From: an uncultured Chloroflexia bacterium | Lineage (GTDB): Bacteria > Chloroflexota > Limnocylindria > Limnocylindrales > CSP1-4 | Direction of reading: 5' to 3' | DNA: 64,000 nt | Assembly: GCA_963734535.1 (NCBI GenBank) | Contig: CAVTHS010000008.1 | Coordinates: 288,001-352,000, forward strand | In this document: one piece after another, positions 3,056-53,816 of the stretch | Numbering within the stretch: the stretch's first letter is position 1 | Layout: each line of letters opens with the position of its first letter | Notes under the pieces: model-generated | What the model saw: only the letters and a program-made list of their open reading frames with translations | What the model was told of the DNA's origin: nothing | Database searches by the model: none | Made by a program: the position numbers and the translations under genes

Positions 3056-4051
3056 GTGACGACGCGAGCCATCCGATACCTCGCCGCGGCGGACGTCATC
3101 GCGTGCATGCCCTCGCTGGCGGATCGGCTCCGGCTGGCCGAGCGAACGCTGATCGGCCTCGCGACCGGCGCCCAGCTGCCCGCCAAGATCGGGGTCCACC
3201 CGCGCCCGGCCGACAGCTTCGTCCACGCCATGCCCGCCCACCTGCGCGGCGAGGCCGAGGACGGGTCGGAGGACCTCATCGGCATGAAGTGGATCGCCGG
3301 GTTCCCCGCCAACGGCCTGGCCGGCCTGCCCGCCCTCCACGGCCTGGTGGTGGTCAACGACCCGCGGACGGGCATCCCGCTCGCCATCCTGGACGGCGGC
3401 CCGATCACCTCCCAGCGCACGGCCGCGGTCTCCGGCGTCGCCATCGGCCGGTGGTCACCACCCGTGGCCGGCCGGCCGCCCCGCGCAGCGATCATCGGGG
3501 CCGGCGCCCAGGGACGCGCCCACGTCCCGGTGCTCGGACACCTGCTGCCCGGCGTCGACCTCGCGATCCACGACCGGCTGCCCGAGCGAGCGGCCGCGCT
3601 TGCGGCCGAGGCGACGGGAGTCCCGGGCATCGGCGCCGCCCGCGCGATCCGCGACCCGCGCGCCGCCGTCGCGGAGGCGGACGTCGTCGTGACGTGCGTC
3701 TCCTTCGGCCCGGTCCGCCAGGTGATGGACTCCGGCTGGTTCGCGCCTGGCGCGCTCATCGTGGCGGTCGACTACGCCACCTCGGTCGCGGCGGACGTGC
3801 CGGTGAACGCCGCCCTCTTCCTCACCGACGAGCGTGGCCAGCTCATCGCGAACCGGGACGCGGGGCTCTTCGACGGCTACCCGGATCCGGACGCCACGCT
3901 CGGTGAGGCAATCCTGGCCGGGACGCCGCGTCCGGCGAGCGGGCGCGTCCTCGTCACGCACCTCGGCGTCGGCCTGGCCGACCTGGTCTTCGCGGACGCG
4001 ATCCTGCGCGCGGCGGAGGTCCGCGGGGCCGGCACGCTCCTGCCCGGGTAG
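3056..4051 (+). CDS. Ornithine cyclodeaminase / mu-crystallin family reductase
   Basis: MKWIAGFPAN, ITSQRTAAVS, IIGAGAQGRAH, G.GLADL; GTG after GGGGAG. Confidence 0.88.
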   Translation: MTTRAIRYLAAADVIACMPSLADRLRLAERTLIGLATGAQLPAKIGVHPRPADSFVHAMPAHLRGEAEDGSEDLIGMKWIAGFPANGLAGLPALHGLVVVNDPRTGIPLAILDGGPITSQRTAAVSGVAIGRWSPPVAGRPPRAAIIGAGAQGRAHVPVLGHLLPGVDLAIHDRLPERAAALAAEATGVPGIGAARAIRDPRAAVAEADVVVTCVSFGPVRQVMDSGWFAPGALIVAVDYATSVAADVPVNAALFLTDERGQLIANRDAGLFDGYPDPDATLGEAILAGTPRPASGRVLVTHLGVGLADLVFADAILRAAEVRGAGTLLPG

Positions 4052-4115
4052 GGCACACTTCGACGCACCGTGGTACCCGCTGGGGGACACGGCCCGGCGT
4101 TCCAGGGAGGGAGTG

Positions 4116-6789
4116 GTGCGCATCCTCGGTCGCCTGCTGGCGGGCCTGCTCATCGTGGTGCTCATCGCGCTCGTCGCCGCCGGCGGCCTGCTCGCGTGGG
4201 TGGGCGCCCGCGCCCTGCCCCAGGCCACCGGCACGCTGCGGGTCGCCGGGCTTGCCGCGCCGGTCACGGTCTACCGCGACGCGGCCGGGATCGCCCAGAT
4301 CGTGGCCGACTCCCCGGACGACCTCTTCTTCGCGCAGGGGTTCGTCCACGCATCGGAGCGGATGTGGCAGATGGAGGTCTTCCGGCACATCGGGAGCGGC
4401 CGGCTCGCGGAGCTGTTCGGGAAGAGCCAGCTGGACACGGACCGGTTGATCAGGACGCTGGGCTGGCGACAGGCGGCGGAGCGCGACCTGGCGGCGGCCC
4501 CGGATGACGTCCGGCGCGCGCTCGACCGGTACGCCGCGGGTGTCAACGCGTGGATCGCCGGGCAGCAGGGCAGGATGCCGCTGGCGTTCGTGGTCGCGGG
4601 CCTCCAGGCGGGAGCCGGCGCCGGCCTCGGCGGCTATACCCCGGAGCCGTGGCAGCCCATCGACTCGGTGGTGTTCGGCAAGCTCCAGGCCTGGAGCCTG
4701 GGAGGGAACCTCCGTGCCGAGATCTTCCGCGTCCTGAGCGACGCCCGGCTCGGCAGCCCGGCCCTGACCGACGTGCTGGCGCCGGCGCTCGGGACGGACG
4801 GCCCGGTGACCGTGCCCACGGGCGCTGCCGGGTCGTTCGGGGCGGGCTCGAAGCTGCCGCTCGCGACCGGCGGCGGCCTGACCGTGAGCTTCGGCCCAAC
4901 GCTGGGCACCGGAAGCGCCGCGGGCGCCGGGAGCGCCGCGGCCGCCGCCGTAGCGTCGACCCCGAGCCCCGCGGCCGTCGCCGGCCTCCTCCGCATCGAC
5001 GCGGTCGCATCCGGGATCGGGGAGCTCGCCGGGCTCGACACGTCCGACACCGCGTTCGGCCACCCGGGCGATCGGCTCCAACGACTGGGTCGTGGCGCCG
5101 TCGAAGAGCGCGAGCGGCCACGCGCTGCTCGCGAACGACCCCCACCTCGGGATCCAGATGCCCAGCATCTGGTACATGAACGGGCTGCGCTGCCGGACCG
5201 TCTCGGCCGCCTGCCCGTTCGACGTGCAGGGCGTCAGCTTCCCGGGCGTTCCGGCCGTGATCCTGGGCCACAACGCGAAGATCGCGTGGGGCGCAACGAA
5301 CGTTGGCCCGGACGTCGAGGACCTCTTCGTGGAGACGCCCGATCCGAAGAACGCCGCGAACTACCTGTACAAGGGGGCGTCGCTGCCGTATACGACCCGC
5401 CAGGAGACGATCAAGGTCGCGGGCGGCGATGCGGTCACGATCACCGTCCGCGAGACCATCCACGGACCTATCCTCTCGGACGTCGACGACGACCTGAAGG
5501 CGACCGGCACGCTGTACGCGCTGCGGTGGGCCGGGACGGCGGCGCCTGACGGGCTGCTCGAGTCGTTCTTCCGCCTCGACACGGCCGGATCGTTCGACGA
5601 GTTCCGGGCCGCGCTGCGGACCTACGGGGCGCCGTCGCAGAACTTCGTCTACGCCGACGTCGCGGGGAACATCGGGTACCAGGTGCCGGGCCACATCCCC
5701 ACCCGACCCAAGGGCGACCTGGGTGATCGCCCGGTCGACGGTGCCTCCGGCGCCCATGACTGGACCGGCTGGATCCCGTTCGACGACCTGCCGGGCTCGC
5801 TCAACCCGCCGGACGGCATCATCGTCACCGCCAACAACGCCGCCGTGGACGCCCGCTACCCGTACCTGATCGGGCGCGAATGGGACCCGGGCTGGCGCGC
5901 CACGCGGATCCGGCAGCTCCTCGACGAGGCGGTCAAGCGCGGCGGCGTCACGCGTGACGATCTCTCTGCGATCCAGACCGACACGCGCCTGCTGCGCGCC
6001 GATGCGGTCATCCCGGCGCTCCTCGCCGCACGTCCGACGAGCGCGGACGGCAGGCTGGTCCAGGACCTGATCCGATCGTGGGATCGGCGCTGCGACCTCG
6101 ACAGCCGCGGTTGCAGCGCCTACGAGGTGGCCGAATGGCGCCTGATGCGGTCGATCTACGACCCCTGGCTCGGCGTCCTTGCGCCGCGCTACGTCGGCTC
6201 CCCGCATTCCAGGGTCGCGCTGCGCGCCCTTCTCGCGAACCCCGGCGCGGTCTTCTGGGACGACCCGAACACGACCGCCGTCGAGACGCTCGAGGAGCGG
6301 GTCGCGGGCGCACTCGACGCGGCGGGCAGCGAGCTTCGCACGGCGCTGGGCGACCCGAGCCGCTGGGCCTGGGGACGCCTGCACCGGACCACGTTCCGGG
6401 AGCAGACGCTCGGCGAGAGCGGGATCGGCCCGCTCGAGGCGTACTTCGACATGGGCCCGTACGGAGCGCCAGGGACCAGCGACGCGGTCGACAACATCAC
6501 GACCACGCTCGGCGCGTGGTACCCGGACCCGAAGAAGCCCGACGCGAAGCCGGGCACGCTCTTCGACGCGTTCGCGGCCTCCACGATCCCGTCATACCGC
6601 CTGGCGATCGACATGGGAGACCTGGACGGTGCGCGGATCATCCAGACGACCGGGCAGAGCGGCAACCCCCTGGACCGCCACTACGGCGACCTCATCGACG
6701 ACTGGCTCGCGGGCCGGACGCTCCCCTTCCCGTTCACGCCGGACGCCGTCCGGAGGGCGGCGGTCACGACCCTGACCCTCGCACCGTGA
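4116..6789 (+). CDS. Penicillin acylase family Ntn-hydrolase, membrane-anchored; frameshift near 5070
   Basis: FAQGFVHASERMWQME alpha-chain motif; GSNDWVV/LLANDPHL beta-chain start restored by removing one base at about 5070. Confidence 0.88.
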
Positions 6790-12557: not shown

Positions 12558-12701
12558 CCGGCGACAGACGGCGCGGAAGCTCGGACCGCGATCTGTTGCA
12601 TGAAGGCTACGTTGGCAGTGAAGGGTAGATAAGGGCCTTTGTACCCTTCTCGCCTGCCTGCGCGGCCGAGGAATCCGGTGCGACCCCGCAGCGCGCCCGG
12701 C

Positions 12702-14223
12702 TCAGCTGGCTGCCGACTCGTCCCGGGCTGTGGACACGTCGATGGGGTGGCCGCCGGACCCGCTGGCGACGACGACCTGGTCTCGGCCTTTCGCCTTCGC
12801 GAGATACATCGCCGAGTCCGCCGCGAGGATCAGCTCCGCGGCCGAGGTGCCGTGGTCTGGGTATGCGGCCACCCCGACCGACATCGTGGCAGCCGGATAG
12901 GAGCCGGTCGAATTCGTCGAACTGGTGCGCCTTGATTCCCTCCCGCAGCGCCTCCGCCCGGCGGTGCGTGTCGGCCAGCGATGCCTTTGGCAGGATGACG
13001 ACGAACTCCTCGCCGCCGAACCGGCAGGCCACGTCCTCGCCCCGCACCGCCGCCCCAAGGAATTGACTGATCCGCCGCAGGACCTCGTCGCCTGCCGCGT
13101 GGCCGAAGGCATCGTTGAGCTGCTTGAAGTTGTCCAGGTCCGCCATCAGCAGGCCCAGGCCATAGCCCTCGCGCGCAGCCCGTCGGATCTCCCGGTCCAG
13201 AGACTCCTCCATGTATCGGCGGTTGAAGAGACCGGTCAGCGAGTCGCGCGAGGACTGCTCCCGGAGCGTGGCTCTGAGCCGGATGTTGGCGAGGGCGAGG
13301 GCCACCTGCTTTCCCAGCGTCTGGACCAGGCGTTCCCGGTCGGCAAGCCGTGCCACGCGAGCCTTGCTCCCCACCCGCCCGCGGACCTGGACGTGGAGCA
13401 GCCCCAGGGTCTCGGTTTGGGCAGTCAGCGGTTCGCAGAGCAGGCCATTCAGGATCGGTTCCTCGACGTGCGGGCATTTGAGCTCGGGGTCCCCGTCGTG
13501 GACAACGTGGAGCCGGCCACGCCGCAGACCCCAGCACTCGGTCGGGGAGAACACGCTCCGCGACGGGGGTGGACTGCCCCAGAGAGCCACCGCGTCGGCC
13601 GCCGTGCCCGACGACACGAGGGCATACACCGCGCCGGCGTCGCCCGAGAAGAGCGACTCGGCAATCCCGGCGACCACCGCGTATGCCTCGTCGAGCGACT
13701 GGCACGACTCGAGCAGCTCCCCCATCCGGGCCAGGAGGGACAGCTCGCGTCCGCGTTGCTCCAGCTCGTCGGCGTGACGCCTGAGCTCCTCGTTCGCGTG
13801 CTCCAGTTGCTCCTGGAGATTCGTTCGGCTCGTAATGTCGACGATCGTGGCGAAGACGAGCGGACCGCCGGGCACCTCCACCGGAGCAAGGCTGACCTCC
13901 GCCGGGAACTCCGTGCCATCGCGGCGGCGAGCGGCCAGCTCCAGCCCGCTGCCCATCGGACGCGGCGTCGGCTGAAGCCGATACCCGGCTCGGTGCGCGG
14001 CGTGTCGCTCGGCCAGGCGCAGCGGCACGAGGCTCTCGATCGGCTCTCCCAGGAGCTCCTCCGCCGACCAGCCGAACGCGCCCAGGACCCTCGGGCCGGC
14101 GTACACGATCCGACCGCGACCGTCGACGGCAACAACCACGTTGGGGCTCGCGTCGAGCACGATCTCGGCGCTGAGCCCGAGTGGTGCGGTGGCCCGGGCT
14201 CGTGGCACCCGTGGGGCGTCCAT
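12702..14223 (-). CDS. PAS-GAF-GGDEF diguanylate cyclase; frameshift near 12910
   Basis: PAS (RRDGTEFPAEVSL, DIT), GAF, DSLTGLFNRR, RGED I-site, RFGGEEF; C-terminus SVGVA..ADSAMYLAK..GRD in the other frame. Confidence 0.9.
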
Positions 14224-14383
14224 GTCGCTGCGCAAAGTATTGGCCGTGTGTCAAGAAAGGGCCAGCCGGATGTCGGGGGCGACCAAAGGACACGCAAACG
14301 TTGACTCGAGGGCCGGCCACCTGGACGGCGGTTGCGCGGACGGCGGTTGCGCGCTGCGCCGACCCGAGGTCGGCGCCGTTACT

Positions 14384-15085
14384 TCAGTGAGCCGAAGCGC
14401 CGTCCGGGACCGCCACCGTGACCAGTCCGGCCAGCCGCTCGTCGTCCAGGATCTTGATGCCCCCGCTGCGTTCACGCTTCACGAGACCCTCGGACTCCAG
14501 CCCGCGCAATGTCCGGTACATCATCACGCGGCTCGTCCCGATCATGGCTGCGAGGTCGGCTCGCTGTGCCACCGGATGCGGCGTGTCGAAGATCACCTTC
14601 CCGTAGCGGGTGAGGATGGCGGCCATCCGCTGGCGCGCCGTCTCGAACGACCGCTCGTCGAGGCGCACATTGAGAACCACGGCGAACTCCGATGCCAGGT
14701 CAAGGAGGCCGACTGCAAGCCCGGCGTCCTCGAGCGCGAGCCTCCGCAGGAAGTCCGGGTCCCATGTCGCCCAGGTCCCATCCGTCAGAGCGACCAGCTC
14801 GTAGAACGCTTCCCCGTCGCGGTCGCTGATCGAGCGCAGCCCGCCGAAGTAACCCGGCCCCGCGATCAGCGCGGCGTACACCTGCCCCGTCTCCGCGACC
14901 CGGCGATCCATGACGTGCCCGTCGAGCACGACGAAGGGAGGCAGGGGGATCCCCCTCGCGTGCAACACGTCGCGGCTGCTGAAGGACTGTCGCCGAGCCG
15001 CAGCTTCGAGGCGACGCAGCGACCCGGCGTCGGCGTTGGGCAACAGCCGATCAACATGGAGGCCAACCGATTCGATCGCGCCCAT
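14384..15085 (-). CDS. Crp/Fnr family transcriptional regulator
   Basis: cNMP-binding-like N-terminus (GPGYFGG), HTH RADLAAMIGTSRVMMYRTLRGLESEGLV. Confidence 0.88.
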   Translation of the reverse strand: MGAIESVGLHVDRLLPNADAGSLRRLEAAARRQSFSSRDVLHARGIPLPPFVVLDGHVMDRRVAETGQVYAALIAGPGYFGGLRSISDRDGEAFYELVALTDGTWATWDPDFLRRLALEDAGLAVGLLDLASEFAVVLNVRLDERSFETARQRMAAILTRYGKVIFDTPHPVAQRADLAAMIGTSRVMMYRTLRGLESEGLVKRERSGGIKILDDERLAGLVTVAVPDGASAH

Positions 15086-15264
15086 GGAGGTCCTCTTCGC
15101 CCCCCGCCGGATCGTACTGCATGACGGCCTGTGCTCGGGACTTCGGACAGCGACCGCGGTCCCGGCCGGGTCACGGAAGAGCGACAGCAGCCGCTCGGAC
15201 CGCCGATAGCCGGTTCGGCGGCGAGATCCGATCCCGTTCCGTCGGCCGACGGGAACGCAATCGG

Positions 15265-16506
15265 TCAGGGGCCCGGTGTCGCGTCGGGCGTCAGGGTCGC
15301 GTCGAGCGTTGGCGCGGACGTCGGAGTCGGCGCTGGTTCCGCATTGGGTGTCGGAGTAGGAGTTGGTTCCGCTGGCGAGATCGGGGCCGGCGTGGGCACC
15401 ACGTCGGGTGTCGGTGTCAGGGTCACGCCGGCGGTCGGCGTCGGGCTTGCGTCGGGCGTCACCACGGGCACCGCGTCTGGCGTCGGGGTTGGGCTCTCGA
15501 GCGTAGTCGAAGTCACGACCTCGACCGTGTCCCGCCCGGCGAATGTCCCGCCGCTGCGCAGGGAGCCCTGCACAGTGAATGTGAGCACCCCGCGACTGGC
15601 GCCCACGATTCCGGCCATCGCACTGGGATCGAAGCTGACCGCCACCCGGCCGTCCTTGTCCGCCGCCGCGCCGCTGTTCGGGATGCAGGCATCGCGGAAG
15701 CAGAGTTCCACCGAGGAGAGCGGGATCTCCGAGATCCTCCGCGGTGCGGTGATCGAACGGACGAAGACCGTGATCTGCTGCGCCGAATTGTCCGAACCCA
15801 GCTGGGCGATGCGCCGGAGCCCCGGATCGGGCTGCGGGATCGAGATCGGTAGCGGCCCGAAGTCGATGACCGCTGCCGACGGCTTCGCGACCTCCGCGCT
15901 GCCGCCAACGACGGCACGATCAAGGAGCCACGCCCCGGAGGGCGGAGCCGTGACCCGGTGGAACCTGCTGAGCACGGATCCGATGGCCGGGATCCGAAAT
16001 GCATACTGGCCGACGACGCGCACCTGGTTGTGGCTGAAATCGTCGGAGATGTTGTTCGCATCACCCTTGGTGACAAACCGCCCATTCGACAGGACCTCGA
16101 CCACGCGGTGCGTCACGACCTTGCCGTCTACCTCGAGGGTGAGGATCATCCCAGGCTCCACGACGGCTGGCGGCCGGACGAGAACGATCAGGTCGCCGGG
16201 AAGAATGGTCGGCGCCATGCTGCCGCCCTCGACACCGAGGACGTGATACCAGCGATTGTCGACGAGACCGTACCCGATGAACAGGAACAACACGACGGCC
16301 GCGAAGAGAGCTGCCGTCGAGGCGGCGCCCACTGCACCGCCGAACCGGCGAAGCACGGGCCGCCAGCCGCGCGGTGCCGGGTCCTGTCGCGGGGGCAGGT
16401 ACAGGACCACGAACCCCGTGGTCCCCCCGACCTGCTCGCCATCCTCGGGATCGACCGCCAGCGGAAGGCTCGCGGCCACTTCCGTTGCGGGAGTCATCTC
16501 GGCCAT
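15265..16506 (-). CDS. SipW-type (S26B) signal peptidase fused to a cleavage-like motif, beta-rich domain and PT tail
   Basis: TM, GGSMAPT, VTHRV, TKGDAN..D, RIPAIG, then SGAWLLDRAVVGG. Confidence 0.85.
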   Translation of the reverse strand: MAEMTPATEVAASLPLAVDPEDGEQVGGTTGFVVLYLPPRQDPAPRGWRPVLRRFGGAVGAASTAALFAAVVLFLFIGYGLVDNRWYHVLGVEGGSMAPTILPGDLIVLVRPPAVVEPGMILTLEVDGKVVTHRVVEVLSNGRFVTKGDANNISDDFSHNQVRVVGQYAFRIPAIGSVLSRFHRVTAPPSGAWLLDRAVVGGSAEVAKPSAAVIDFGPLPISIPQPDPGLRRIAQLGSDNSAQQITVFVRSITAPRRISEIPLSSVELCFRDACIPNSGAAADKDGRVAVSFDPSAMAGIVGASRGVLTFTVQGSLRSGGTFAGRDTVEVVTSTTLESPTPTPDAVPVVTPDASPTPTAGVTLTPTPDVVPTPAPISPAEPTPTPTPNAEPAPTPTSAPTLDATLTPDATPGP

Positions 16507-16543
16507 CGGCAGTGCTCCAATCGCCGTGTCATGGCGAGGACCT

Positions 16544-16570
16544 GGGGGAGGGGTGGGTTACCCCTCCCCC
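16544..16570. terminator. Hairpin just after the TasA-like gene (partial terminator or mRNA stabiliser)
   Basis: GGGGGAGGGGT-gggtt-ACCCCTCCCCC, 11-bp stem. Confidence 0.6.
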
Positions 16571-16589
16571 AAAGCCTCCCGGCTCGAGG

Positions 16590-17159
16590 CTAGAAGGTGG
16601 GATCCGCGGGCTGGGCGCCGTCCACGACGAGATTGAATGTCGCGGAGTCGCCCTGGTAGTCGTTACCGGCGGACGTGTCGAGCATGAACTGGTAGTAGAA
16701 GCAGTGGGTGATGTTCACATCAAGCGGATTGGCGATGATGCCAGCCGAACTATTCGACCGGACATCCAGGGCGTTCAGGGCGCCATCGCCCCACACGACG
16801 GGCCACGAGCCCGGGTTTGCGGTACCGCAGTACGTGTGGTGGACGCGGACGTTGAGCTTGTTGAACATCGCCGCGTCGCCGCCAGTGAACGCTGACGTGA
16901 GGCGGTACTTGAGCGGCAGTGTGCCAGGCGCGGAGTTGTACACGAAGACTTCGTACGGGTTGGTCCACTCGCCGGGGGCCATGTTCGAAATGGTGATCGA
17001 GGTGGCGTCCGCACCGTTGAAGCTGACGTGAAGCTTGCCGGCGGTCGCCGTGACCGGATCGGTTGCCTGCGACGTGAACCAGGCGGAGGTGCCAACGACG
17101 CCGGAGATGAGGACGAAGCTCGTCGCAAGTGCGAGGAAGAGGCCGAGTCGCTTGCGCAT
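16590..17159 (-). CDS. TasA/camelysin-like protein with SipW-cognate signal peptide
   Basis: MRKR-hydrophobic-GTSA|WFTS..TAGKL; NMAPGE; N.AGNDYQGDSATFNL TasA-family C-terminus. Confidence 0.85.
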   Translation of the reverse strand: MRKRLGLFLALATSFVLISGVVGTSAWFTSQATDPVTATAGKLHVSFNGADATSITISNMAPGEWTNPYEVFVYNSAPGTLPLKYRLTSAFTGGDAAMFNKLNVRVHHTYCGTANPGSWPVVWGDGALNALDVRSNSSAGIIANPLDVNITHCFYYQFMLDTSAGNDYQGDSATFNLVVDGAQPADPTF

Positions 17160-17234
17160 GATCGATCCTTTCGTGCTTCCTCCGCCAACTCGGGCGGAAC
17201 GATTGATGGCGACACCGTAGGGATGACCACGCCG

Positions 17235-17304
17235 GCCGCCATCCGTGCCAGCCCGTAGGCGGGTACGCGTTCAAACCGTGCAGGCAGGGGTCTGAGTGCG
17301 TACA
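17235..17304 (-). promoter_or_regulatory. Conserved upstream element, copy A
   Basis: 36/38 identity with 20457-20494, plus TGTACGCA exactly 24 nt upstream in both copies. Confidence 0.7.
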
Positions 17305-17516
17305 GGGTGTGGTCCCCGGGCGCGGGTTCTCACCCGGGCGAGCACCCCCTTGCCGTGCACCGACCGTGTCCTGGGCCCAATCCCGCCGCCGCTCCGATCC
17401 GACGGCCGGCGAGCCTTCGGACGACCTCTGTGTGACCTCCCGGCGGCTGGTGCCGTTGGGCCGAGCAATCCTGGCGAGGCCAGGGCCGCGCCGTCGGTCG
17501 TCGCGAGTTCGACCGC

Positions 17517-18727
17517 TCAGGGAGCGAGCGTCGCGTCGGGCGTCGGGGTCGCGTCGAGCGTTGGCGCGGATGTCGGGGTGGGATCTGGGTCGAGTGGCGG
17601 CGTCGGCGTGGCCACCACGTCGGGCATCGGCGTCGTCGTGGGGTCGGCGGTCGGTGTCGGGGTCACGTCGGGCGTCGAGGTCGGGGTACGTCGGGCGTAG
17701 GGGCCCGTGTGGGGATCGGGGTCACGTCGGGCGTCGGTGTCGGCTGGAGATCGAGCAGCGGGTTCGGGCCCGGTGCTGCGCCAGCGGTCGACTCGAGCTC
17801 GCAGCCCGCGAATGTGTCCTTCGTCGTGCCGTAGCACGCATCGGTTCCGTCGCCTCCGTCGAGGAGGTCCTTGCCGTTGCCGCCTTCGAGCACGTCGCCG
17901 TCTTCACCGCCGTGGAGAGAGTCGTCGCCGGCCCCGCCGAGCAGCACATCCTTGCCGTTGCCGCCGACCAGGGTGTCGTTGCCGTCCCCACCGACGAGGC
18001 AATCCTTGCCGTTGCCGCCGTAGATCGTGTCGTTGCCCCCGAGGCCGAACACGAGCGCGCCGCCGTGGCCCGCATGGAACGTGTCGTTACCCTCCGTGCC
18101 GACGATCACCTCGGCGAACGTCATGCCGGTGCATTCTGGCGGGGTCGGCGGGGCGATCGGAGTCGGGGTCGGGGTGGGTGTTGGCCATGAGCCCACCGTG
18201 ATCTGCATCCCGGCGCTCGTCCGGTCCGCAAACGAAGCCTCCGAACCGTTCCAGACCGGGAGGATGTGGCCGAGCCAGGGAACGGTCGCGACGTACAGCC
18301 CGTCGACCTGAATGGGCTGGCCGCTCCAGGCGTTGTTCACGCGGTTCGCGTCCCCGCGCGTGACGTAACGTCCCGTCGGCGTTGACGGCCACCACGCGAT
18401 GGGTGACGACCTCGCCGCCCACGCTCATCACGAGGATCATGCCCGGCTCGATCTTCGAGGGAGCCGGCGCGACCAGGATCAGGTCCCCACGCGAGATTGC
18501 CGGCTCCATCGAGCCGCCCTCGATCGTGATCATCCGGTACCAGGGGTTGCCGACGATCCCTGCTCCGATGAAGACGGCGAGCGCCAGGGCGGCGAACAGC
18601 GTCCACTTCGACCAAGGCACCGAGAAGCCGCCCGACACGAGCGATGTCGTGCGAGCGGCATCGCCGGGCGAATGCGGACGGCTTCGGTCGAGTCGCGAAA
18701 GCGCGTCTGGACCTGGGTTCCGCTCAT
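17517..18727 (-). CDS. SipW-type signal peptidase fused to cleavage motif, RTX-type Ca-binding repeats and PT tail; about 3 frameshifts
   Basis: GGSMEPA, VTHRV, RGDAN, VPWLG, SEA|SFAD..ITVGSW, GGxGxDxLx repeats; assembled from ORFs 18087-18638, 17663-18340, 17517-17837. Confidence 0.78.
17831..18046 (-). repeat. About 8 tandem hemolysin-type (RTX) nonapeptide repeats
   Basis: [72 protein letters not shown]. Confidence 0.9.
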
Positions 18728-18904
18728 CGACTCTGGCCTCTCCTGGGATTGATCACTGTGCCTTTGCGTTCCGATCGCCTTCCCGCCGACGACCGAGCAC
18801 TGAAGGAATGGCCCAGCCCGGTGTGAACGCACCCCGGGCTGAGGCCCTCTGTGGACAAGCTGTCCACCAGCGGCGTCCCCTCAACGCCGCTCGGATTGAT
18901 GCCG

Positions 18905-19820
18905 TTACGGCAGACGGCGTTGAAGCGGGTCCAGTCGAAGCGGTCGTCGCGCCTCAGCGCCGAAGCTCATGCGGACCTCGAACATGCGCTGACACCGGAC
19001 GGTGATCGTGACGTCTGGCCGTGGTTCAGGCGCGGTCGCCGATGCACTTGAACGGCCACAGGCCGTCGGTGAGCGAGCGGGTAGTTCCAGTGTGTCATGC
19101 GACGCCGCCCGACGGTGACCGCCGCTGCTCGGGCGTGTTGCCGTTGAAGCGGTACTCGAAGCAGACTGCCGCCGCTGGCGCCGGGTGAAGGTCAGCGCGC
19201 TCGAACCGTGATCGTGGTCGTCGACGGTGACATGGGCCAAGCCGCTGCCCACGTTGGCCGCGTCGTGCTGCGGGTCACAGCGTTGGTGCTTCGACGTGCC
19301 CGAGCGATGCCAGCGCTCCAGGCCTGACCGCGGGCACCTCGCCGCAGTTCACCGTGTAGGTGATCGAGCCGGCGTCGCCGAGGTCGTTCGTGCCAAGCTC
19401 AGCCCACTGGATGCCAGCGTTGTAGGTCTTGGTCCCACCGGCAGCCAGCGGTCACGGCGGCGGTTGGCGTGGCCAGGATGCTCGAGAAGTTGCTCGACAG
19501 GTTCCCGCGCCCAGCTCGACGTGACCGTGAGCGACTGCGGGATGGAGCCCGTGTTCTGCACGGTGAAGGAGAACGGGGCGCTCCCCGCCACGGAGCTCAT
19601 GATCGTTGGGGACGTGAAGGTGAGCGACTTGCCGTCGGCCGCGATGCCGTCCGACGCCGCGCCCGGTGTCGCAGCGACGATCTTGCAGGCGAACGTGCCG
19701 ACGTCGATGTTCTGCGGTGGCGGTGACTGAGTCCTGGAAGACGGCGCTAACACCGCCGCCGATGAGTCCGACCGTGAGGCCGCCTGCGGCAAGCAGGCCG
19801 GCGATCTTGCGTAGAGACAT
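18905..19820 (-). CDS. Second SipW-substrate (TasA-like, Ig-like) protein with extra C-terminal domain; heavily frameshifted
   Basis: MSLRKIAGLLAAGGLTVGLIGGGVSA|VFQDSVTA..NIDVGTF, FTVQNTGSIP; downstream fragments CFEYRFNG and FEVRMSFGAE..DRFDWTRF. Confidence 0.65.
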
Positions 19821-19866
19821 TGTTCCTCTCACTCCGTGGGATGTGCTTGGGGCACGTGGGCAGATC

Positions 19867-20436
19867 TCAGGACGCGGCTTGGGCTCTACGGGCACCCACC
19901 CCCTTTCGAATCTCGAGGAGGATGAGCAGGGCGACGATCAGGCCGGCGGCGATGAGCGCCGCGCTGCGCAGCTCGGTCAGCCAGCCGACGTAGGGCACGA
20001 CGAAGACCAGCCGATAGCCGGTTGCTCCCTGCAACGTGACTCGCCATGGATCGGCGACGCTGTTCGCGTCACCCTTCGTCGTGATCACGTCGCCATCCCG
20101 CGACGCGATCCGGTGCAGCACCGATCGCGTCTCGTTCGGCGGGGTGAAGACGATGACGTCGCCGACGCGGAGCGAACCGATCGGCACGCCCTGCGTGATC
20201 GCGAGGTCGCCCGGCGACACGGTGGGCCGCATCGAGCCGGTCAGGACCGTCTGCACGTGGAAGTCGGCCATCCGAAAGGCGATCCCGCCGGCGAGGACGG
20301 CCACGCCCGCCACGAGGAGCAGCCGGTGAACAGCCGGGACCGACGACTCGTGCGCCCGACTTTCGTGGTGGACCTCCAGATTCCTGGGCGCGAGAAACGG
20401 TTCCCCGATTCGGTCTACCCTCGCGAGGTACTTCAC
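19867..20436 (-). CDS. sipW: Stand-alone SipW-type signal peptidase I (start uncertain)
   Basis: VLTGSMRPT, GDVIVF, VLHRI, TKGDANSVADP, VPYVGW plus C-terminal TM. Confidence 0.88.
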   Translation of the reverse strand: MKYLARVDRIGEPFLAPRNLEVHHESRAHESSVPAVHRLLLVAGVAVLAGGIAFRMADFHVQTVLTGSMRPTVSPGDLAITQGVPIGSLRVGDVIVFTPPNETRSVLHRIASRDGDVITTKGDANSVADPWRVTLQGATGYRLVFVVPYVGWLTELRSAALIAAGLIVALLILLEIRKGVGARRAQAAS

Positions 20437-20456: not shown

Positions 20457-20526
20457 GCCGCCATCCGTGCCAGCCCGGAGCCGGGTACGCGTTCGGCCGC
20501 CCCCAGGCGGGCGCGCGATGCGTACA
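20457..20526 (-). promoter_or_regulatory. Conserved upstream element, copy B
   Basis: Near-identical to 17235-17304 with the same spacing. Confidence 0.7.
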
Positions 20527-32415: not shown

Positions 32416-35400
32416 TCACCCGGCCGTGACGCCGCGCCTCCGCTCGAGCATGCCCTTCCCGCCGTCGACCAGCGAGTACACGACCGGCACGACGATCAGG
32501 GTCAGGAACGTCGACGAGAAGAGGCCGCCGATCACGACCGTGCCGAGCTCCGCGGCGATGATCGAGCCCTGGTTGAAGCCCGCCGCGAGCGGGATCAGGG
32601 CCAGGATCGTGGCGATCGCCGTCATGAGGATCGGCCGCACGCGGCGTCTTGCCGCCCTCGATGAGCGCGTCGGTCGTGGACAGCCCGCTTCGACGCAACC
32701 GCTCCACGAGGTCGAGCAGGACGATCGCGTTCGTGACCACGATCCCGATCAGCATCAGGATCCCGATGAGCGCGCTCACGCCGATCGCCCGGCCCGTCAG
32801 GAGCAGCGCCGGGAAGACGCCGATCGCCGCGAGCGGGAGGCTGAACATGATCACGAACGGGGTCACCAGGCTGTTGAACGCCAGGACCATCATCACGTAG
32901 ACGAGCAGGACCGCGATCGCCATCGAGTTGAAGAGCCCGCCGAACGCCTGGCCCTGCTGCTGGGTGACGCCGGAGAACCGCACGTCGACGCCCGGCCGGG
33001 ATCGTGCCCGACGTCTTCAGCGCGTCGACTGCGACCTGCGCGGACCGCGAGACGCCGCCGGTGTCCTTGCTCGTGATGTCGGCCGTGATCGAGGCGGACG
33101 GCGCCTGGTCGATCCGGGTGATGCTGCCCTGCGTCGCCACCTCGGCCACGTCCGCCACGGAGCTCAGCGCAACCTTCGCGCCCGTTCCGACCGGGAGCGC
33201 CTGGAGCGCCTCCACGCTGGTGACGCGCGCCGGGTCGAGCCGGACGTAGAGGTCGATCGGGCCGCCGTCGGCGAGCTGGACGCGCGTGACGAGCGAGCCG
33301 ACGAGCGCCGAGCGCACCTGGCCCGCGATCTGCGCCGCGGTCAGGCCGGCATCGAGCGCCTTGTTCGGGTCGACCCGGATGTCGATCTGCGGCGTTGCCT
33401 TGACGAGGTCCGACTTCACGTTGGACCAGGTCCGGGTTGCTCCGGAGCGCCCCGATCACCGCGTCGGTGGCGGCGGCGACGGCCGTCGTGTCCTGCGCGC
33501 TGACGATGATCGAGAGGCCGTTCGAGGTGAAGCCGAACGCCTGGCCGACGGCGACGTCGAAGCCGTTGGTCTTCAGCGGCGCGAGGTCGGTCCCGACCTT
33601 CGTGGTGTAGGCGTCGAGGTCGACGTCGCTCGCGAGGCGCACCACCATCGTGGCGCTGTTGGCGGGTCGGCCGGAGAAGGCCGCCGAGAGCGTGGACGCC
33701 GCCCGTGTCCCCCTCGCCCGGCACTGTCGTCTCCACGAGCTGCACCTTCGGGTCGGCGCGCAGGATCGTCTCCGCCTTCGTCGCCGCGGCGAGGACCGAC
33801 TCCCCGGTGACCCCCGCCGGTGGGACGATGCTCACCTGGAGGACCTTCTCCGATCCGGTCGAGATGAACTGCGTCGGGAGGCGCCCCACGATCGAGACGG
33901 ACCCGAAGAAGAGGAGCGTCGCGAGCCCGAGGACGCCGAGCTTGGTCCGGCGGTCGCGCAGCACGAAACGGATCGTCGGCGCGTAGGCGCGCACCCAGAG
34001 CGAGTTCTTCGGCTCGCCGGTCTCGTCGACCGCGAGCTTCACGCGATCGATGAACAGGTAGGCGAGGATCGGGATGATCGTCAGCGCGCACACCAGCGAG
34101 GCGAGCAGCGCGAACGTCACGGTGAGCGCGAAGGGCAGGAAGAACTCGCTGACGATGCCGCCCACGAACCCGATCGGCAGGAAGACCGCCACGGTCGTGA
34201 GCGTCGAGCTGGTGATCGCGCCGGCCACCTCGCGCGGGCCGTTGAGGACGGCTGTCAGCCGGTCCTCGCCCAGCGCCCGGTGGCGGTAGATGTTCTCGAG
34301 GACGACGATCGCGTCGTCCACCACCCGCCCCACGGCGACGGCGAGACCACCCAGGGTCATGATGTTGAGCGTGATCCCCGTCACCTGCATGACCACGAGC
34401 GCGGTCAGCACGGAGAGCGGGATGCTCACGGCGGCCACGAGCGTCGAGCGGAGGCTGAACAGGAACAGGAAGATCGTGAGCACCGCGAACAGGGCGCCCA
34501 GGCCGCCTTCGCGGAGCAGGCCGTCCCGCGATTCCTTGATGAACGTCGAGAGGTCGGAGACGGTGACGACCGTGAGCTCCGGGTGGAGCGCACCGATCTC
34601 CTTCAGCTTCGCCTGCACCGCGTCGGCGACCTCGACCGTGTTGGCGTTCGCGTTCTTGCTCGACCGTGATCGTCAGCGACGGCTCGCCGTCCGTCCGCGC
34701 GTAGCCGGTCGTCGCGACCTGGGCAACGTCGACCGTGCCGATGTCGGCGATGCGGATCCGGATCGGGGCGGCGGGCGCGGCCGGGATTGCCGACTTCGCC
34801 GCCGCGACCAGGCCGAGGATGTCGGGGACGGTCGTGAAGCCGCCCGACGCCGATCCCGCTGCGGGGGCGCCGCTGCCCGCTCCCGCGGCGGGGGTCGCGC
34901 GCCGCACGCTCACGACGAGATTGCGGACCTGGTCGAGCGTGGTGAACGAGCCCGACGTGGAGACGGGGATCCGGCTTGTGCCGGTCGGGAGCTGGCCGGC
35001 CGGAAGGGTCAGGTTGTTGGCGGTGAGCACGCCCTGGACCTGGTCGATCGAGACGCCGGCGATCGCCATCCTGGTCGGGTCGAGCGTCACCATCAGGCGC
35101 GACGTGAGTCCGCCCGCGAGGTCGACCGACGCGACGCCGTCGAGCGCCTGGAGATCGGGCACGACCTCGGCCGCGGCCACCTTGGCGGCCGCCCGTCTGG
35201 CCGTCCGCGCCGGTACCGAAGATCGAGGCGATGATGACCGGCGATGCGTTGATGTCCAGGGAGTTGACCTGCGGCGTGACGTTCGCGGGCAGCTTCAGCG
35301 CCGTGATGTTCTGGACGATGGCCGCCTTCGTGTCCTTGACGTTCGTCCCGTAGGAGAACTGGGCGACCACGAGGGCGATCGAGTTGGCCGAGGTCGACTG

Positions 35401-35643
35401 GACCCGCTCGAGGCGCGGGATCCCGGAGATCGCTCGTTCGATCGGCTTCGCGATCTGGTCGGCGACGTCGGAGGCGCCTGCCCCCGGGTCCGCCGCGACC
35501 ACCGTGATCACGGGCAGCTCGATGTCCGGGAGCAGCTCCTGCTTGAGGCTGCCCCACGCGGAGATGCCGGCGATGAACAGGGCGATGGCGAGCAGGAGCG
35601 CGACGCTCCGCTTGCTGACGGCAAGCTCGCTGAGTCGACTCAC
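32416..35643 (-). CDS. RND (AcrB/SwrC-like) efflux transporter; about 6 frameshifts
   Basis: KQELLPDI, GRVVDDAIVVLENI, GIVVTNAIVL, RPILMTA. Confidence 0.88.
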
Positions 35644-36191
35644 GAGTGGTCTCCCGGAAGCGTGGAACCGTGTGGTTGGCGAGAACCGGCTTGGACACCG
35701 GTGATCGGGAACTCGTCGTCCGCGGCGGCTGCCAGCAGGCGCGTGGCGCGCTCGACGACGTCGAGCTCGGCGTCCTCGAGGCGGGCGAGAAGCCGCCGCA
35801 TCTGGGCCGCGTTGAGCTCGCGGAAGCGCTCGAGGTGGCCGCTCCCGGTGGCGGTGATCGTGACCACCACCTGGCGCCGGTCGGCGGGGTCGTCGTGCCT
35901 GGCGAGAAGCCCGTGGTCGACCAGCCGATCGACGAGCCCGCTCATCGTGGAGATCGACACCCCGAGGTGGACGGCGAGCTCCGACATCCGCATCCCCTGC
36001 CCCGCGGCGACCAGGTACATCACCTTGGCCTGGGACATCGTCACCCCGACCTCCATCAGGTCCGGCGCATGCGATGACGCGATGCGATGCATGAGCAGCT
36101 CGTAGGACACGATGACGCGATCGATCCGCGCGCCGCGGCCGGCGTCGTCGGACGGCATGGTTGCGTGGGTTCCCTCCGTGATCGTTGGCAT
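35640..36191 (-). CDS. MarR family regulator
   Basis: MSELA..LGVSISTMSGLVDRLV..D.ADRRQVVV. Confidence 0.9.
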   Translation of the reverse strand: MPTITEGTHATMPSDDAGRGARIDRVIVSYELLMHRIASSHAPDLMEVGVTMSQAKVMYLVAAGQGMRMSELAVHLGVSISTMSGLVDRLVDHGLLARHDDPADRRQVVVTITATGSGHLERFRELNAAQMRRLLARLEDAELDVVERATRLLAAAADDEFPITGVQAGSRQPHGSTLPGDHS

Positions 36192-38700: not shown

Positions 38701-39145
38701 ATGGCAGCAGTACGACGCGCAGAAGCCTCCTGGACCGGCTCCCTCGCCGAGGGGAGCGGCATGATCAACTACGTGACGAGCGGCTCGATCACGCGGCTAC
38801 CGGTGACATGGGCCTCGCGAACGGAAGAGCCCAATGGACGGACCAGCCCGGAGGAGCTGGTCGCGGCCGCCCATGCAAGCTGCTTCGCGATGGCGTTCTC
38901 CGGGGGCCTCGGCCGCAATGGGACCCCGCCGACATCGCTCGCGGTCAGCGCAACCGTCACGTTCGACAAGCTGGAGGCCGGCTGGCGGATCGTCTCGTCC
39001 GCCCTCACGGTCCGGGGCGTCGTCCCGGGGATCGACGCCGCCACGTTCACGACGCTCGCCGAGGCGGCCAAAGACGGCTGCCCGATCTCCGTCGATGATG
39101 CAAGGGAACGTCGCGCTCTCGGTCGAGGCGACGCTGGAGGGCTGA
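38701..39145 (+). CDS. osmC: OsmC family peroxiredoxin; frameshift near 39095
   Basis: TSPEELVAAAHASCFAMA, AKDGCPIS. Confidence 0.88.
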
Positions 39146-39184
39146 TCGCCCGATCGGGTCAATGGGCCGCTGCGACGGGCCGGA

Positions 39185-40127
39185 TCAGCCGATCGTCAGG
39201 AGGCGGCGCGGGTTCGTCTCGGTCATCTGCCGGATCTCCGTCTCGCCGACCCCCGCAGCGCGCAGGTGCGGCAGGAACGTCTCCTGGACGGTACGTGTAG
39301 CCGTTCCCCCCGTAGTGGCGGAGCTGCTCGTTGTGGCAGACGTCCTGCGAGAGCAGGACGCGGTCGGCCCTGCCGCGGCCGAGCAGGTCGAGCAGGAGCG
39401 GGATGAGCCGCGGCTCGGCGAGGCGCTCCTGGGGCGTGAACAACATGCCCAGGAAGTCGAGCTCGATGTTTGCGCCGCGCTCCAGGATCGCCAGCCAGTA
39501 GTCGAGCCGCGGGTGGGAGTCGGCGTGGCCGATCACCACGCGGCCCGGGTCGACGCCCGCCTCCTCGAGGACGCGCAGCTGGGCGAGGCCCACGTCGCTC
39601 ATCACGGCATGCGTCATCACCGCCAGACCCGTCGCCTGCGATGCGCGCCCGACGGCGCGAAACACGCGCTCCTCCTGGGCCGACAGCCATGGCTTGTCCG
39701 ACCCGATCTCGCCGATGATCCCGGGCCGGACGTCCGTCCCCTCGGCCCCACCGAGGATCTCGTCCACGAGGATGTCGGACAGCTCCGCGACGGAACGGCG
39801 GTCGACGAGCGCATCCGGCGGGTAGTACGCGCCGCGGTACCACCCGCACCCCATCACCAGGTGGAGTCCCGAGGCTTCGGCCAGCCTGCGGAGTCGCAGC
39901 GGGTCGCGCCCGATCGCGGCGAGCGTGACGTCCACGAGGCACGTCCCGCCGAGCTCACCGAACCGGGCGAGCTCCGGCAGGATGAGGTCGTCCTCGCCGG
40001 TCAGCTCCCAGTAGTCCCAGCGGCCGGGTATCTGCCAGAGCACGCAGCGGGTGTGCTCGTGCGGAAGCGTGAATCCGAGCGCGTCCGGCGGGACCGGGCC
40101 CAGGACGGTCTGGACGTGCGGCGTCAT
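39185..40127 (-). CDS. Phosphotriesterase-related amidohydrolase; frameshift near 39295
   Basis: VQTVLGP, HEH, GEIG, IGHAD, LLSQD, NPRRLL. Confidence 0.88.
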
Positions 40128-40298
40128 CGGCCGATCATAGGCGTGTCACGCGCGCTCCAGCGTGGTTGCGCGCTCCGCGTTGTCCAGCCGGCACATTCGG
40201 CCTATAGTCCGGCGCAGCCACGGGGTGGAGGGGCTCGCGGCCGACAGAGGCTACATGGCTGCCCAAGGCGGGTTGCCCTCGTGGAGGAGGAGGTCGCA

Positions 40299-41251
40299 AT
40301 GCAGACGAAGCGCCAATTCGTGGCGCTCCTGGCCGTGTTCGGGCTCGCGCTCGGCGCGTGCTCGAGCGGTGCCAGCCCAACGCCGGCTCCGAGCGCGGCG
40401 CCGTCGGTGGCGCCCTCGACCGCGGCAAGCGCCGCCGCAAGCACTGCGCCGAGCGCGGCGCCGAGCGTCGCCGCCACCGTCGATCCGAGCTCGCTCCTCG
40501 GCAAGGTCCTGGCAAAGGGCACCATCGTGATGTCGACGGACCCGCAGTACCCGCCCCAGTCGTCCCTGAAGTCCGACGGGACGTACGAGGGCTTCGACAT
40601 CGACGTCGGGACGGAGATCGCAAAGCGGCTCGGCGTCAAGATCCGTTCCAGACTCCAGACTGGAACATCATCACCGCCGGCTCCTGGTCCGGGCGCTGGG
40701 ACTTCAGCGTCGGCTCCATGACGATCACGACGCCGCGCGAGAAGGTTCTTGCCTTCAGCAAGCCGTACTACTACACCCCGGCCCAGATCGCCGCGTCCAA
40801 GGTCTCGGGCATCACGACGCTCGATGGGTTCGCCGGCAAGACGATCTGCGTCGGCGAGGCGACGACCTACTTCGACTGGATGAGCGGGACGCTCGACCTG
40901 GGGTCGTACACCCCGCCGACGAAGCCGCCCACCGGTTCGAAGGTCACCACGCTCTCCACGGACCGGCTCTGCGCCGAGGCGTGGAAGGCCGGCCGCAAGG
41001 ACTTCGAGGGCTGGCTCAGCTCCTCGACGACGGTCGACCAGGCGGTCAAGGACGGCCTGCCGCTCGTGAAGGTCGGCGACCCCGTCTACTACGAGCCGCT
41101 CGGCGTCGCGTTCGACAAGAGCGGGCCCGATCCGACGGGCATGGTCGCCAAGGTCAACGAGATCCTCGACGCCATGCGGGCGGACGGGACCCTCACGGGC
41201 TTCGCCACCAAGTGGTTCGGCATCGACCTGTCCGTCGCGCCGGGCGCCTGA
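40299..41251 (+). CDS. Polar amino-acid ABC transporter substrate-binding lipoprotein; frameshift near 40645
   Basis: Lipobox LGAC, TDPQYPPQS, GFDIDV, SMTIT..R, M.ADGTL. Confidence 0.88.
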
Positions 41252-42203: not shown

Positions 42204-43049
42204 ATGTCCGGCTCGAGCCGCACCCCACTCGCACACGACGTGAGCGACCCCTTCGCCGCCCCGGGTGCGCTGACGCCGTCGAACACGGGGCCGATCGTGC
42301 GCCTTCTCGAGATCGAGAAGTACTTCGGCTCCAACCACGTCCTGCGCGGCTGCACGATGGAGGTCTACCCGAGCGAGACGATCTGCCTCATCGGGCGGTC
42401 GGGATCCGGGAAGAGCACGCTGCTGCGCTGCGCGAACTTCCTGGAGGAGCCGACCGCGGGCGCCGTCGAGATCGACGGCGTGCGCGTGGACGCGGATCCG
42501 CTCCACGCGCGGTCCGGCACACACCGCGAGCAGATCCGGCAGATCCGGATGCGCGCCCAGATGGTCTTCCAGGAGTTCAACCTCTTCCCGCACATGAAGG
42601 TGATCGACAACCTGATCGAGGCGCCCGTCCGGGTGAAGGGCGTCCCGCGCGACCAGGCCATCGCGACGGCGGAGAAGTTCCTCGACAAGGTGGGCCTCTC
42701 GGAGAAGCGCGACGAGTATCCCGCCCGCCTCTCGGGCGGCCAGAAGCAGCGCGTGGCGATCGCCCGCGCGCTGACGATGGAGCCCAAGGTGCTCCTGTTC
42801 GACGAGCCGACCTCCGCGCTCGACCCGGAGCTGGTCGGCGAGGTCCTCGTCGTCATGTCGGAGCTGGCCCACGAGGGTGCCACGATGATCGTGGTCACCC
42901 ACGAGATGCAGTTCGCGCGCGAGGCGGCCGACCGCGTCTACTACATCGACGCGGGCGCCTTCGTGGAGGTCGGGCCGCCCGAGCAGGTGATCGACAAGCC
43001 GCAGGACCCGCGCACGGCCAAGTTCCTCGCGCGCCTGCTCATCAAGTAG
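42204..43049 (+). CDS. Amino-acid ABC transporter ATP-binding protein
   Basis: GRSGSGKST, LSGGQKQR, DEPTSALDPE. Confidence 0.93.
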   Translation: MSGSSRTPLAHDVSDPFAAPGALTPSNTGPIVRLLEIEKYFGSNHVLRGCTMEVYPSETICLIGRSGSGKSTLLRCANFLEEPTAGAVEIDGVRVDADPLHARSGTHREQIRQIRMRAQMVFQEFNLFPHMKVIDNLIEAPVRVKGVPRDQAIATAEKFLDKVGLSEKRDEYPARLSGGQKQRVAIARALTMEPKVLLFDEPTSALDPELVGEVLVVMSELAHEGATMIVVTHEMQFAREAADRVYYIDAGAFVEVGPPEQVIDKPQDPRTAKFLARLLIK

Positions 43050-43062
43050 TCTTCGAGGCACC

Positions 43063-45490: not shown

Positions 45491-45499
45491 GCTGCCGGC

Positions 45500-53811: not shown

Positions 53812-53816
53812 GGCTG

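Follow-up and report, generated by a model that had tools for sequence, protein, structure and literature searches.

Signal peptidases fused to a donor-strand-like segment in a SipW/TasA-type locus of an uncultured Chloroflexia bacterium

Two of the three signal peptidases encoded in a SipW/TasA-type locus of an uncultured Chloroflexia bacterium from soil carry, behind the peptidase domain, what sequence comparison indicates is a copy of the N-terminal donor strand of the TasA-like subunit encoded in the same module. The locus lies in a stretch of 64,000 nucleotides, referred to here as the window, which covers positions 288,001 to 352,000 of contig CAVTHS010000008.1 (C8:288001-352000) and has a GC content of about 70%. 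Its source is a metagenome-assembled genome (MAG) of 3.2 Mb in 14 contigs, with a completeness of 89.9% and a contamination of 7.1%. Five co-oriented genes occupy the minus strand of the window from 15265 to 20436 in the order A-B-C-D-E (Table 1), and they form two modules, sipW (A), tasA-like (B) and sipW::RTX (C), followed by tasA-like (D) and sipW::beta (E). Systems of the TasA/TapA/SipW kind are known; what seems to be new here is the donor-strand copy fused to a signal peptidase. On balance, we think it probable that each fused protein is a TapA-like fiber initiator joined to its own peptidase, and that the strand, once cut free, would start or cap the cognate TasA-like fiber with the attached domain at the fiber end.

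Results

Strand Mimicry and Predicted Strand Insertion

A search with E recovered 45 proteins, 41 of which have the peptidase GDAN motif, and inspection of the 45 residues after the IPxxG sequence left 38 of these without a second membrane segment. We compared these fused proteins with the TasA-like subunits over the 17 residues that follow P1 of a cleavage-type motif, using ungapped BLOSUM62 scores and controls in which residues 5-17 were shuffled 300 times. On the fused side, 37 of the 38 proteins have the motif and enough length; sorted by P1' residue, 19 of them are C-type and 18 are E-type (16 of the latter distinct). The D-type subunits were represented by the 60 of 71 D-family rows that fit the site pattern, and the B-type subunits by a pattern scan of 25 loci, which gave nine matches, five of them distinct (three records are each present as two loci).

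The 19 C-type strands scored a mean of 31.3 against the five B-type N-termini (shuffled mean 1.4, maximum 6.3) and 3.7 against the 60 D-type N-termini (shuffled mean 0.3, maximum 2.5). The 16 distinct E-type strands scored a mean of 15.1 against the D-type set (shuffled mean 9.0, maximum 11.1) and 1.8 against the B-type set (shuffled mean -5.4, maximum -1.0). By this measure, each fused peptidase has a copy of its own partner's N-terminal strand, with C-type proteins resembling B-type subunits and E-type proteins resembling D-type subunits. The mimicry is strong for the first pair, and the resemblance within the second is found mainly in W-F-x-D. An hhalign comparison of the fused family with the TasA-like family returned a sole match, which places E 190-212 on D 24-46 (E-value 5e-4, probability 31%), the segment of D that comprises its signal-peptide cleavage site and first mature strand.

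A preliminary description of the locus, made from the sequence without database searches, had proposed modeling the mature subunit together with the released peptide. When D 27-189 and E 193-245 were modeled as a complex, the pair scored 0.73 and the best of three controls 0.04. Of 80 solved complexes, 58 come up to the mark used for this score, as do 2 of 110 mismatched pairs, counts that are only approximate for a model which, like this one, used its own alignments. Three runs share at least 99% of their contacts, with a predicted local distance difference test (pLDDT) value of at least 56 for the partner, and the confident interface sets E 193-209 against D 168-183, 41-47 and 51-61. The residues of the E strand pair antiparallel to the last strand of D, which is the geometry of an added strand, and the model predicts that E 193-209 inserts into D in this manner.

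An Internal Cleavage-Type Motif

The strand in each fused protein directly follows a motif of the kind found at signal-peptide cleavage sites. The four motifs quoted in the preliminary description are all present as given (a slash marks the cut): TSA/WFTS in D, VSA/VFQD in B, SEA/SFAD in C and SGA/WLLD in E, where the latter comprises S190, G, A192, W193, L, L and D. In an alignment of 26 fused peptidases, S96, H133, D149, N151 and the P1 residue A192 are invariant, and S190 (P3) and F194 (P2'; numbering of E) are conserved in at least 90% of sequences, while the linker around the motif varies in length. The pattern [STG]-x-A-x-[FLWY] occurs 6-14 residues after IPxxG in 36 of the 38 homologs with a single membrane segment; the exceptions are P0004, which has Gly at P1, and P0019, which is truncated. 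The preliminary description would have given up its proposal if the internal motif were not conserved in orthologs, and these counts point the other way.

The invariant P1 Ala and the conserved P3 Ser suggest, without proving, cleavage at this position. In C-type proteins, six residues separate the hydrophobic stretch from the cut site, a spacing that would correspond to the length of a signal-peptide c-region. We infer that the internal site is cleaved, whether in cis or by a different peptidase. LepB is reported to cut poorly at sites with Phe at P2', which require SipW (PMC10269814).

The Fused Family, Its Cargo and Its Short Forms

The preliminary description had surmised that SipW fusions might already be present in databases, and they are indeed recurrent there, labeled only 'signal peptidase I'. 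The closest relatives of the fused peptidase come from records titled uncultured Chloroflexia, Candidatus Limnocylindria/Limnocylindrales (Limnocylindria is a class of Chloroflexota), Chloroflexi and Anaerolineae, together with a few Actinomycetota/Acidimicrobiia MAGs. The cargo of the family consists of RTX repeats, RTX repeats with a PKD domain, the beta domain of E, or Pro/Thr-rich sequence alone. In P0037 and P0038, the beta domain of E stands behind an ordinary SipW-type signal peptide (GDTTA/YYTD).

Three short forms of the peptidase (L025, L028 and L024) stop 38-50 residues past IPxxG, right behind the strand; one example reads SGA, the cut, WFSALLTVGGSAEGSTWSAIPAP and then the stop. 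These short forms have TasA-like genes on both sides, and L024 is a short-read style contig. Since they end behind the strand, the conserved core of the family is peptidase, site and strand, and the cargo domains are optional. The fused part is a donor strand with optional unrelated domains, TapA-like in character, and not a TasA-fold subunit. This bears on the earlier proposal that a minor subunit or nucleator is built into the peptidase: the strand mimicry and the modeled insertion agree with it, but the fused portion does not have the TasA fold.

One relative, G007 (95% complete, two contigs), has a single TIGR02228 match, and this is a fused E-type gene adjoining a D-type subunit. As the lone SipW-type match in that genome is a fused one, the fused enzyme should also process the subunit. 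Genomes of the same order (G025-G040) are only 1.0-1.4 Mb in size and about 85-93% complete, and several of them have SipW-type matches in open frames of 226-523 amino acids.

The TasA-Like Subunits

The assignment of the locus to the SipW/TasA type rests on subunit D. The preliminary description had proposed profile scans with TIGR02228, TIGR04088 and PF12389. D reaches 24.2 bits against TIGR04088 (cut-off 19) and 22.9 bits against the 22.5 required by PF12389, the latter over its N-terminal 60 residues only. A phmmer search of 1.84 billion representatives found 158 relatives of D, and a D family profile built on 71 sequences matches the TasA structures 8aur_A (E-value 3.7e-8) and 5of1_A (E-value 6.7e-8). 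The AlphaFold2 (AF2) model of D has a pLDDT of 92.3, and its best match in the PDB is the TasA fiber 8aur_A (E-value 1.6e-6, TM-score 0.63), followed by the archaeal bundling pilus 7ueg_A. In this model, D has the jelly-roll fold of the TasA fiber subunit. The locus is thus of the SipW/TasA type, as had been described, and subunits lacking a TasA or Ig-like fold, which the preliminary description would have counted against its proposal, are not what the D model displays.

B begins at 19817 (MSLRKIAG, continuing to VSA/VFQD), and its first piece scores 21.5 bits against TIGR04088. The intact B ortholog of G021 scores 18.1 bits, slightly below the cut-off, and aligns to the D family profile with a probability of 90.7%. 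The total length of B ranges from about 253 to 430 amino acids across G021, G008 and G001, and its variable C-terminal part may be a hypervariable surface domain. Between congeners this part is wholly different, consisting of unrelated sequences (L017, L019, L020 and L021). The unreadable stretch of the window that lies where relatives have this domain gave no match to the C-terminal extension of the G021 protein, and a blastn comparison of the region with relatives matched only from 18700 to about 18850.

The Three Peptidases

A, C and E are signal peptidases of the endoplasmic reticulum (ER)/archaeal type (TIGR02228, MEROPS S26B), with the GSMxP (Ser), HR (His) and GDAN motifs in all three, in accordance with the preliminary description. 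Against TIGR02228 (cut-off 51.85), A scores 79.5 bits and E 58.0 bits; the N-terminal piece of C, the only part of this frame-broken gene that can be scored, reaches 41.5 bits, and its intact ortholog in G008 67.6 bits. The Bacillus SipW equivalog NF046067 (cut-off 190 bits) is not reached by A (49.8 bits) or E (38.6 bits). A has N- and C-terminal membrane segments (Kyte-Doolittle peaks at residues 39-57 and 158-176), of which the C-terminal one is missing from E and from the C-type proteins.

E is one clean frame. It consists of a cytoplasmic tail, one membrane helix (59-77), the peptidase (about 50-182), a linker, a beta domain (about 241-333) and a Pro/Thr tail. The AF2 model is confident for the peptidase and beta domains, and the linker (187-241) and tail are disordered. 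The peptidase domain of E best matches human SEC11C (7p2q_A; Foldseek E-value 6.6e-4; VIA Z 9.3, root-mean-square deviation 8.2, 128 residues aligned), followed by the S24 self-cleavers LexA, UmuD and lambda repressor and by SipA of S. pyogenes. The beta domain gave generic Ig-like fold matches only (Z 6-7.5), and an ESM Atlas search with it was uninformative, with a best score of 0.83. The RTX repeats of C, nonapeptides of the Ca-binding kind, reach 67.9 bits against PF00353 (cut-off 23). NCBIfam models of RTX toxins reach 60.9 bits against a cut-off of 1000, far too little for a toxin, so that C holds the repeat module only. From their sequences, the fused proteins should be active ER-type signal peptidases with one N-terminal membrane helix and the catalytic domain outside the cell.

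Module Organization, Regulation and Neighboring Genes

A survey of gene neighborhoods, also proposed in the preliminary description, found A-B-C or D-E units in relatives. The A-B-C unit recurs intact in G021, and also in G008, in G001 with two copies of B, and in G010, where it lies beside sufB as it does in the window; G007 has D-E only. An hmmsearch of the 21 closest database loci with the D family profile found a D-type TasA-like open reading frame immediately 5' of the peptidase gene in nine of them (E-values 1e-49 to 1e-64), and within these 21 loci the profile misses the divergent B-type subunit of C-type loci. The 3' ends of E and C, with about 30 nucleotides past their stops, form a direct repeat of 78% identity (15234-15339 and 17486-17591). 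One public-run contig passes from 15331 straight to 17548 and represents the form without D-E, as in G008. The D-E module looks like a cassette that is gained and lost by recombination between the Pro/Thr tails.

A and D are each preceded by an element of 38 nucleotides, which in G001 (L017 9831-9868) and G010 (L021 5376-5413) likewise stands before A. It contains a short hairpin that is preserved through wobble changes. This element could be a shared operator or leader. A sigma-54-type reading of the element, which contains TGGCAC, was rejected in the absence of a -12 element.

Directly downstream of E is a gene for a Crp-type regulator, which in G008 directly follows C, and beyond it a gene for a diguanylate cyclase. 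Both share the orientation of the fiber locus, and a link between cyclic di-GMP and fiber production is possible. At the far end of the window, 52286-55994 and 55832-64000 hold the hydrogenase maturation genes hypD and hypF and two loci of the pyruvate:ferredoxin oxidoreductase type; these belong to ordinary metabolism and are unrelated to the fiber locus.

Table 1. Features of the fiber locus and its surroundings, in window coordinates.
Feature	Coordinates	Strand	Basis
38-nucleotide element upstream of A	20457-20494	-	repeat search
Gene A, stand-alone SipW-type (ER/archaeal-type, S26B) signal peptidase I, 189 amino acids	19867-20436	-	TIGR02228
Gene B, TasA-like subunit no. 1, signal peptide ending VSA/VFQD, four frame pieces	19278-19817	-	TIGR04088, three-frame translation
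Unreadable stretch; variable C-terminal domain of B lies here in relatives	18730-19277	-	no open frame
Gene C, SipW-type peptidase, internal motif, RTX beta-roll and Pro/Thr tail	17517-18727	-	tblastn, PF00353
Motif S-E-A/S-F-A-D of C (18224-18244) and 17-residue strand (18185-18235)	18185-18244	-	conservation, mimicry
RTX nonapeptide repeats of C, 27-nucleotide tandem units	17841-18032	-	repeat search (family D2), PF00353
38-nucleotide element, second copy, upstream of D	17235-17272	-	95% identical to copy upstream of A
Gene D, TasA-like subunit no. 2, signal peptide ending TSA/WFTS, intact, 189 amino acids	16590-17159	-	TIGR04088, profile, AF2
Gene E, SipW-type peptidase, motif, Ig-like beta domain and Pro/Thr tail, 413 amino acids	15265-16506	-	TIGR02228, AF2
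Motif S190-G-A192/W193-L-L-D of E and strand 193-209	15880-15939	-	conservation, hhalign, complex model
Crp-type regulator, directly downstream of E	14384-15085	-	PF13545, 41.5 bits
PAS-GAF-GGDEF diguanylate cyclase, frame-broken near 12900	12607-14235	-	PF00990, profile positions 2-111 of 161

Assembly State and Frame Breaks

The coordinates, shared orientation and order of the five genes agree with the preliminary description, but B and C are not single open frames, and C starts at 18727 and not at 18638. In this assembly, A, D and E are each unbroken. Three-frame translation and tblastn pieces place at least three breaks in B, near 19700, 19510 and 19450, along a frame path of 0, 1, 2 and back to 0. 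C has at least four breaks, near 18640, 18606, 18370 and 17700. A tblastn search with the intact G008 ortholog recovered C as 18727-18644, 18639-18604, 18608-18366 and 18373-17687 in three frames, and a further frame change leads to the Pro/Thr tail. In relatives, B and C are both intact in G021 and C is intact in G008, and G001, G008 and G010 have frame breaks in the same locus genes at other places.

Comparable splits run through at least five further genes of the window, namely those for a penicillin amidase, an AcrB-like protein, an SBP_bac_3 protein, an MMPL protein and the GGDEF protein. They were detected by a Pfam split-domain scan, and a GC3 frame plot was set aside for its inability to tell gene ends from frameshifts. 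Single Pfam domains are spread over overlapping frames of the same strand at 3807-6786, 32419-35700, 39099-41248, 42991-45558 and 12607-14235. In the penicillin amidase gene, profile positions 1-169 fall in 3807-5546 and 168-674 in 4954-6786; SBP_bac_3 is divided between two frames at profile positions 1-42 and 42-131, and the AcrB-like gene is present as several pieces. Because breaks occur in at least five unrelated genes, assembly indels are a likelier cause of those in B and C than local decay, and real decay of the first module in this genome is possible but less likely. Assembly indels look numerous and clustered in some stretches of the window. Two public sequencing runs share only 0.13 and 0.08 of the sampled words, and none of their pieces spans a break site.

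Discussion

The locus has much in common with the tapA-sipW-tasA system of B. subtilis, in which TasA builds fibers by donor-strand exchange and TapA is the initiator. Both have a dedicated ER-type peptidase and a TasA-fold subunit with an A/x-F-x-D site whose first residues form the donor strand. According to PMC9674648, the TasA donor strand comprises residues 28-38, right after the cleavage site, and the N-terminus of TapA resembles it. PMC10151520 reports that a B. subtilis strain secreting only TapA 44-57 forms a proper biofilm. Further common points (PMC9674648, PMC10151520) are a minor component with an N-terminus that mimics the donor strand and a minimal initiator that may be a short peptide. 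The short forms that end behind the strand parallel this sufficiency of the secreted TapA 44-57 peptide (PMC10151520). The differences lie in where the strand is found: here it is at the C-terminus of the peptidase, whereas TapA is secreted independently, behind a signal peptide of its own. The Chloroflexota (Limnocylindria-like) host also differs in having two modules with three peptidases and no sequence relation to TapA.

In the architecture that we propose, the fused peptidase has, in place of the second membrane segment of SipW, a short hydrophobic stretch that leads into the S-x-A/x-F site and then into a copy of the partner's donor strand of about 17 residues. Behind the strand there may be an RTX beta-roll, a domain of the Ig-like or PKD kind, or a Pro/Thr linker. 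The peptidase domain of the protein itself, or a neighboring peptidase, would cut the site, and the freed strand would enter the groove of a TasA-like monomer. This would start the fiber, or cap it, as the TapA N-terminus does in B. subtilis, and the attached domain would be placed at the fiber end. The analysis itself covers the gene families, the folds, the conserved motif, the cognate mimicry and the predicted insertion, and from these we propose cleavage, initiation and fiber formation by this locus.

Several points weigh against a cut, fiber-starting strand. E has Leu and not Phe at P2', and TIGR04088 is blind to the internal site in both window segments and in all 15 single-segment fused proteins scanned. 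In the AF2 model of E, residues 187-241 fall below a pLDDT of 50 and the site is undocked in the active site, which makes the model uninformative on docking in cis. The hhalign match is in register but weak, and E-type strands are weakly conserved beyond W-F-x-D, with residues 5-17 scoring 0.6. The sequences in the mimicry comparison are close kin, so the counts overstate their independence, and the B-type N-termini come down to just five distinct ones. As the TasA fiber has been solved and the alignments were our own, which also loosens the calibration of the score, the outcome of the complex model shows likeness and supports binding but is no proof of it. Finally, with B and C frame-broken, the first module may not work in this genome.

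A bolder version, which we regard as possible but doubtful, is a self-priming machine in which each fused peptidase cuts itself once in cis and releases the initiator strand with or without an adhesin module. If it were true, how many peptidase molecules are made would determine how many fibers are started, and the remaining membrane-bound enzyme would process the major subunits beside the nascent fiber. The short forms would yield an initiator peptide of 23-37 residues on its own. Such a protein would be the first known signal peptidase with its own substrate aboard, and the machine a new coupling of secretion, processing and nucleation in donor-strand fibers.

Alternatively, the strand may stay on the peptidase and insert into the first subunit uncleaved, so that the peptidase serves as membrane anchor and nucleator and S-x-A is conserved for other reasons. 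The strand mimicry and the complex model fit this equally well, and the single N-terminal membrane helix would supply an anchor where the locus has no other. TapA itself is described, in PMC10151520 and PMC9674648, as an anchoring and assembly protein that co-localizes with the membrane. Nevertheless, we consider an uncleaved anchor rather unlikely. The invariant P1 Ala and the P3 Ser conserved in at least 90% of sequences are the defining positions of a signal-peptidase site, and neither is needed by a strand that acts only as donor. RTX and PKD domains would also sit on the cell-proximal side of the fiber, which is odd for adhesin-like modules, and the same cargo is found behind cleavable signal peptides in P0037 and P0038.

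We find it less probable still that the motif is a pseudo-substrate or structural tail, which fills its own substrate groove for regulation or is simply part of the subfamily fold, with the C-terminal domains serving an unrelated surface function. Such a role has precedent among the fold matches of E, where the clan SF relatives LexA, UmuD and lambda repressor keep their own cleavage-site region in the active site, and the AF2 model has no docked pose to argue either way. However, it leaves unexplained why the N-terminus of the cognate subunit is mirrored in the 17 residues behind the motif, why the strand is modeled to insert into that subunit, and why the short forms end right behind it. An origin of the fusions in two genes merged by assembly errors, or a locus that is a decaying remnant, is suggested by the many frame breaks of the window, the broken B and C and the completeness and contamination of the MAG, but is very improbable given the clean 413-residue frame of E, the same architecture without a second signal peptide in 38 homologs from several sources that include short-read style contigs, the intact C orthologs in G008 and G021, and breaks in at least five unrelated genes that point to assembly error and not to local decay. 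For E and for the fused family, an artifact is excluded; the state of B and C here may still reflect one.

Fusions and substrate-like strands of other kinds help to place the proteins for which we favor an initiator role. LexA, UmuD and lambda cI (clan SF, S24) have the same catalytic fold as the fused peptidases and carry their cleavage site within their own chain, where it is cut in cis or in trans. This site, however, precedes the catalytic domain, and the proteins are cytoplasmic regulators with a Ser-Lys dyad. Among the proteins found with E, P0041-P0043 also join SipW to a SipW-type substrate (motifs TSSYFSAG, TTSYFSD and TRGAFADG), and P0042 has a weak TIGR04088 match at residues 240-265 (E-value 0.039), in its third hydrophobic region. 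These three proteins retain the second membrane segment of SipW and a complete signal peptide, giving three hydrophobic peaks, whereas the type found in the window has neither. SipW fusions with a second membrane segment, a full signal peptide and large cargo also occur in other lineages (L052 and L058).

Archaeal pili of the AbpA/AbpB and AbpX kinds are alike in their TasA-like jelly-roll subunits, and 7ueg is the second-best fold match of D. In PMC9245690, AbpB is proposed to give the first complementing strand, with its distal beta domains acting as adhesins. AbpX loci are described, in the preprint 10.64898/2026.01.04.697558, as combining signal peptidase I with tip or minor components, with an accessory DUF5305 protein sometimes fused to the peptidase. 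The archaeal systems differ in that their strand donors are separate proteins, and the one fusion partner described for their signal peptidase is an accessory membrane protein and not a substrate-like strand. A literature search, with supplements outside its scope, turned up no account of a signal peptidase joined to such a donor strand.

To our knowledge, the way in which TasA-type fibers are started and positioned on the cell surface is only partly understood, and we know of no conservation of TapA beyond a few Bacillus species. The strand-bearing peptidase would correct the blanket label 'signal peptidase I' for dozens of proteins, and the modular cargo behind a standard strand (RTX, Ig-like or PKD) may find use in the display of domains on protein fibers. 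It suggests a compact and widespread alternative in Chloroflexota and some Actinomycetota, in which the processing enzyme itself supplies the initiator or tip of the fiber.

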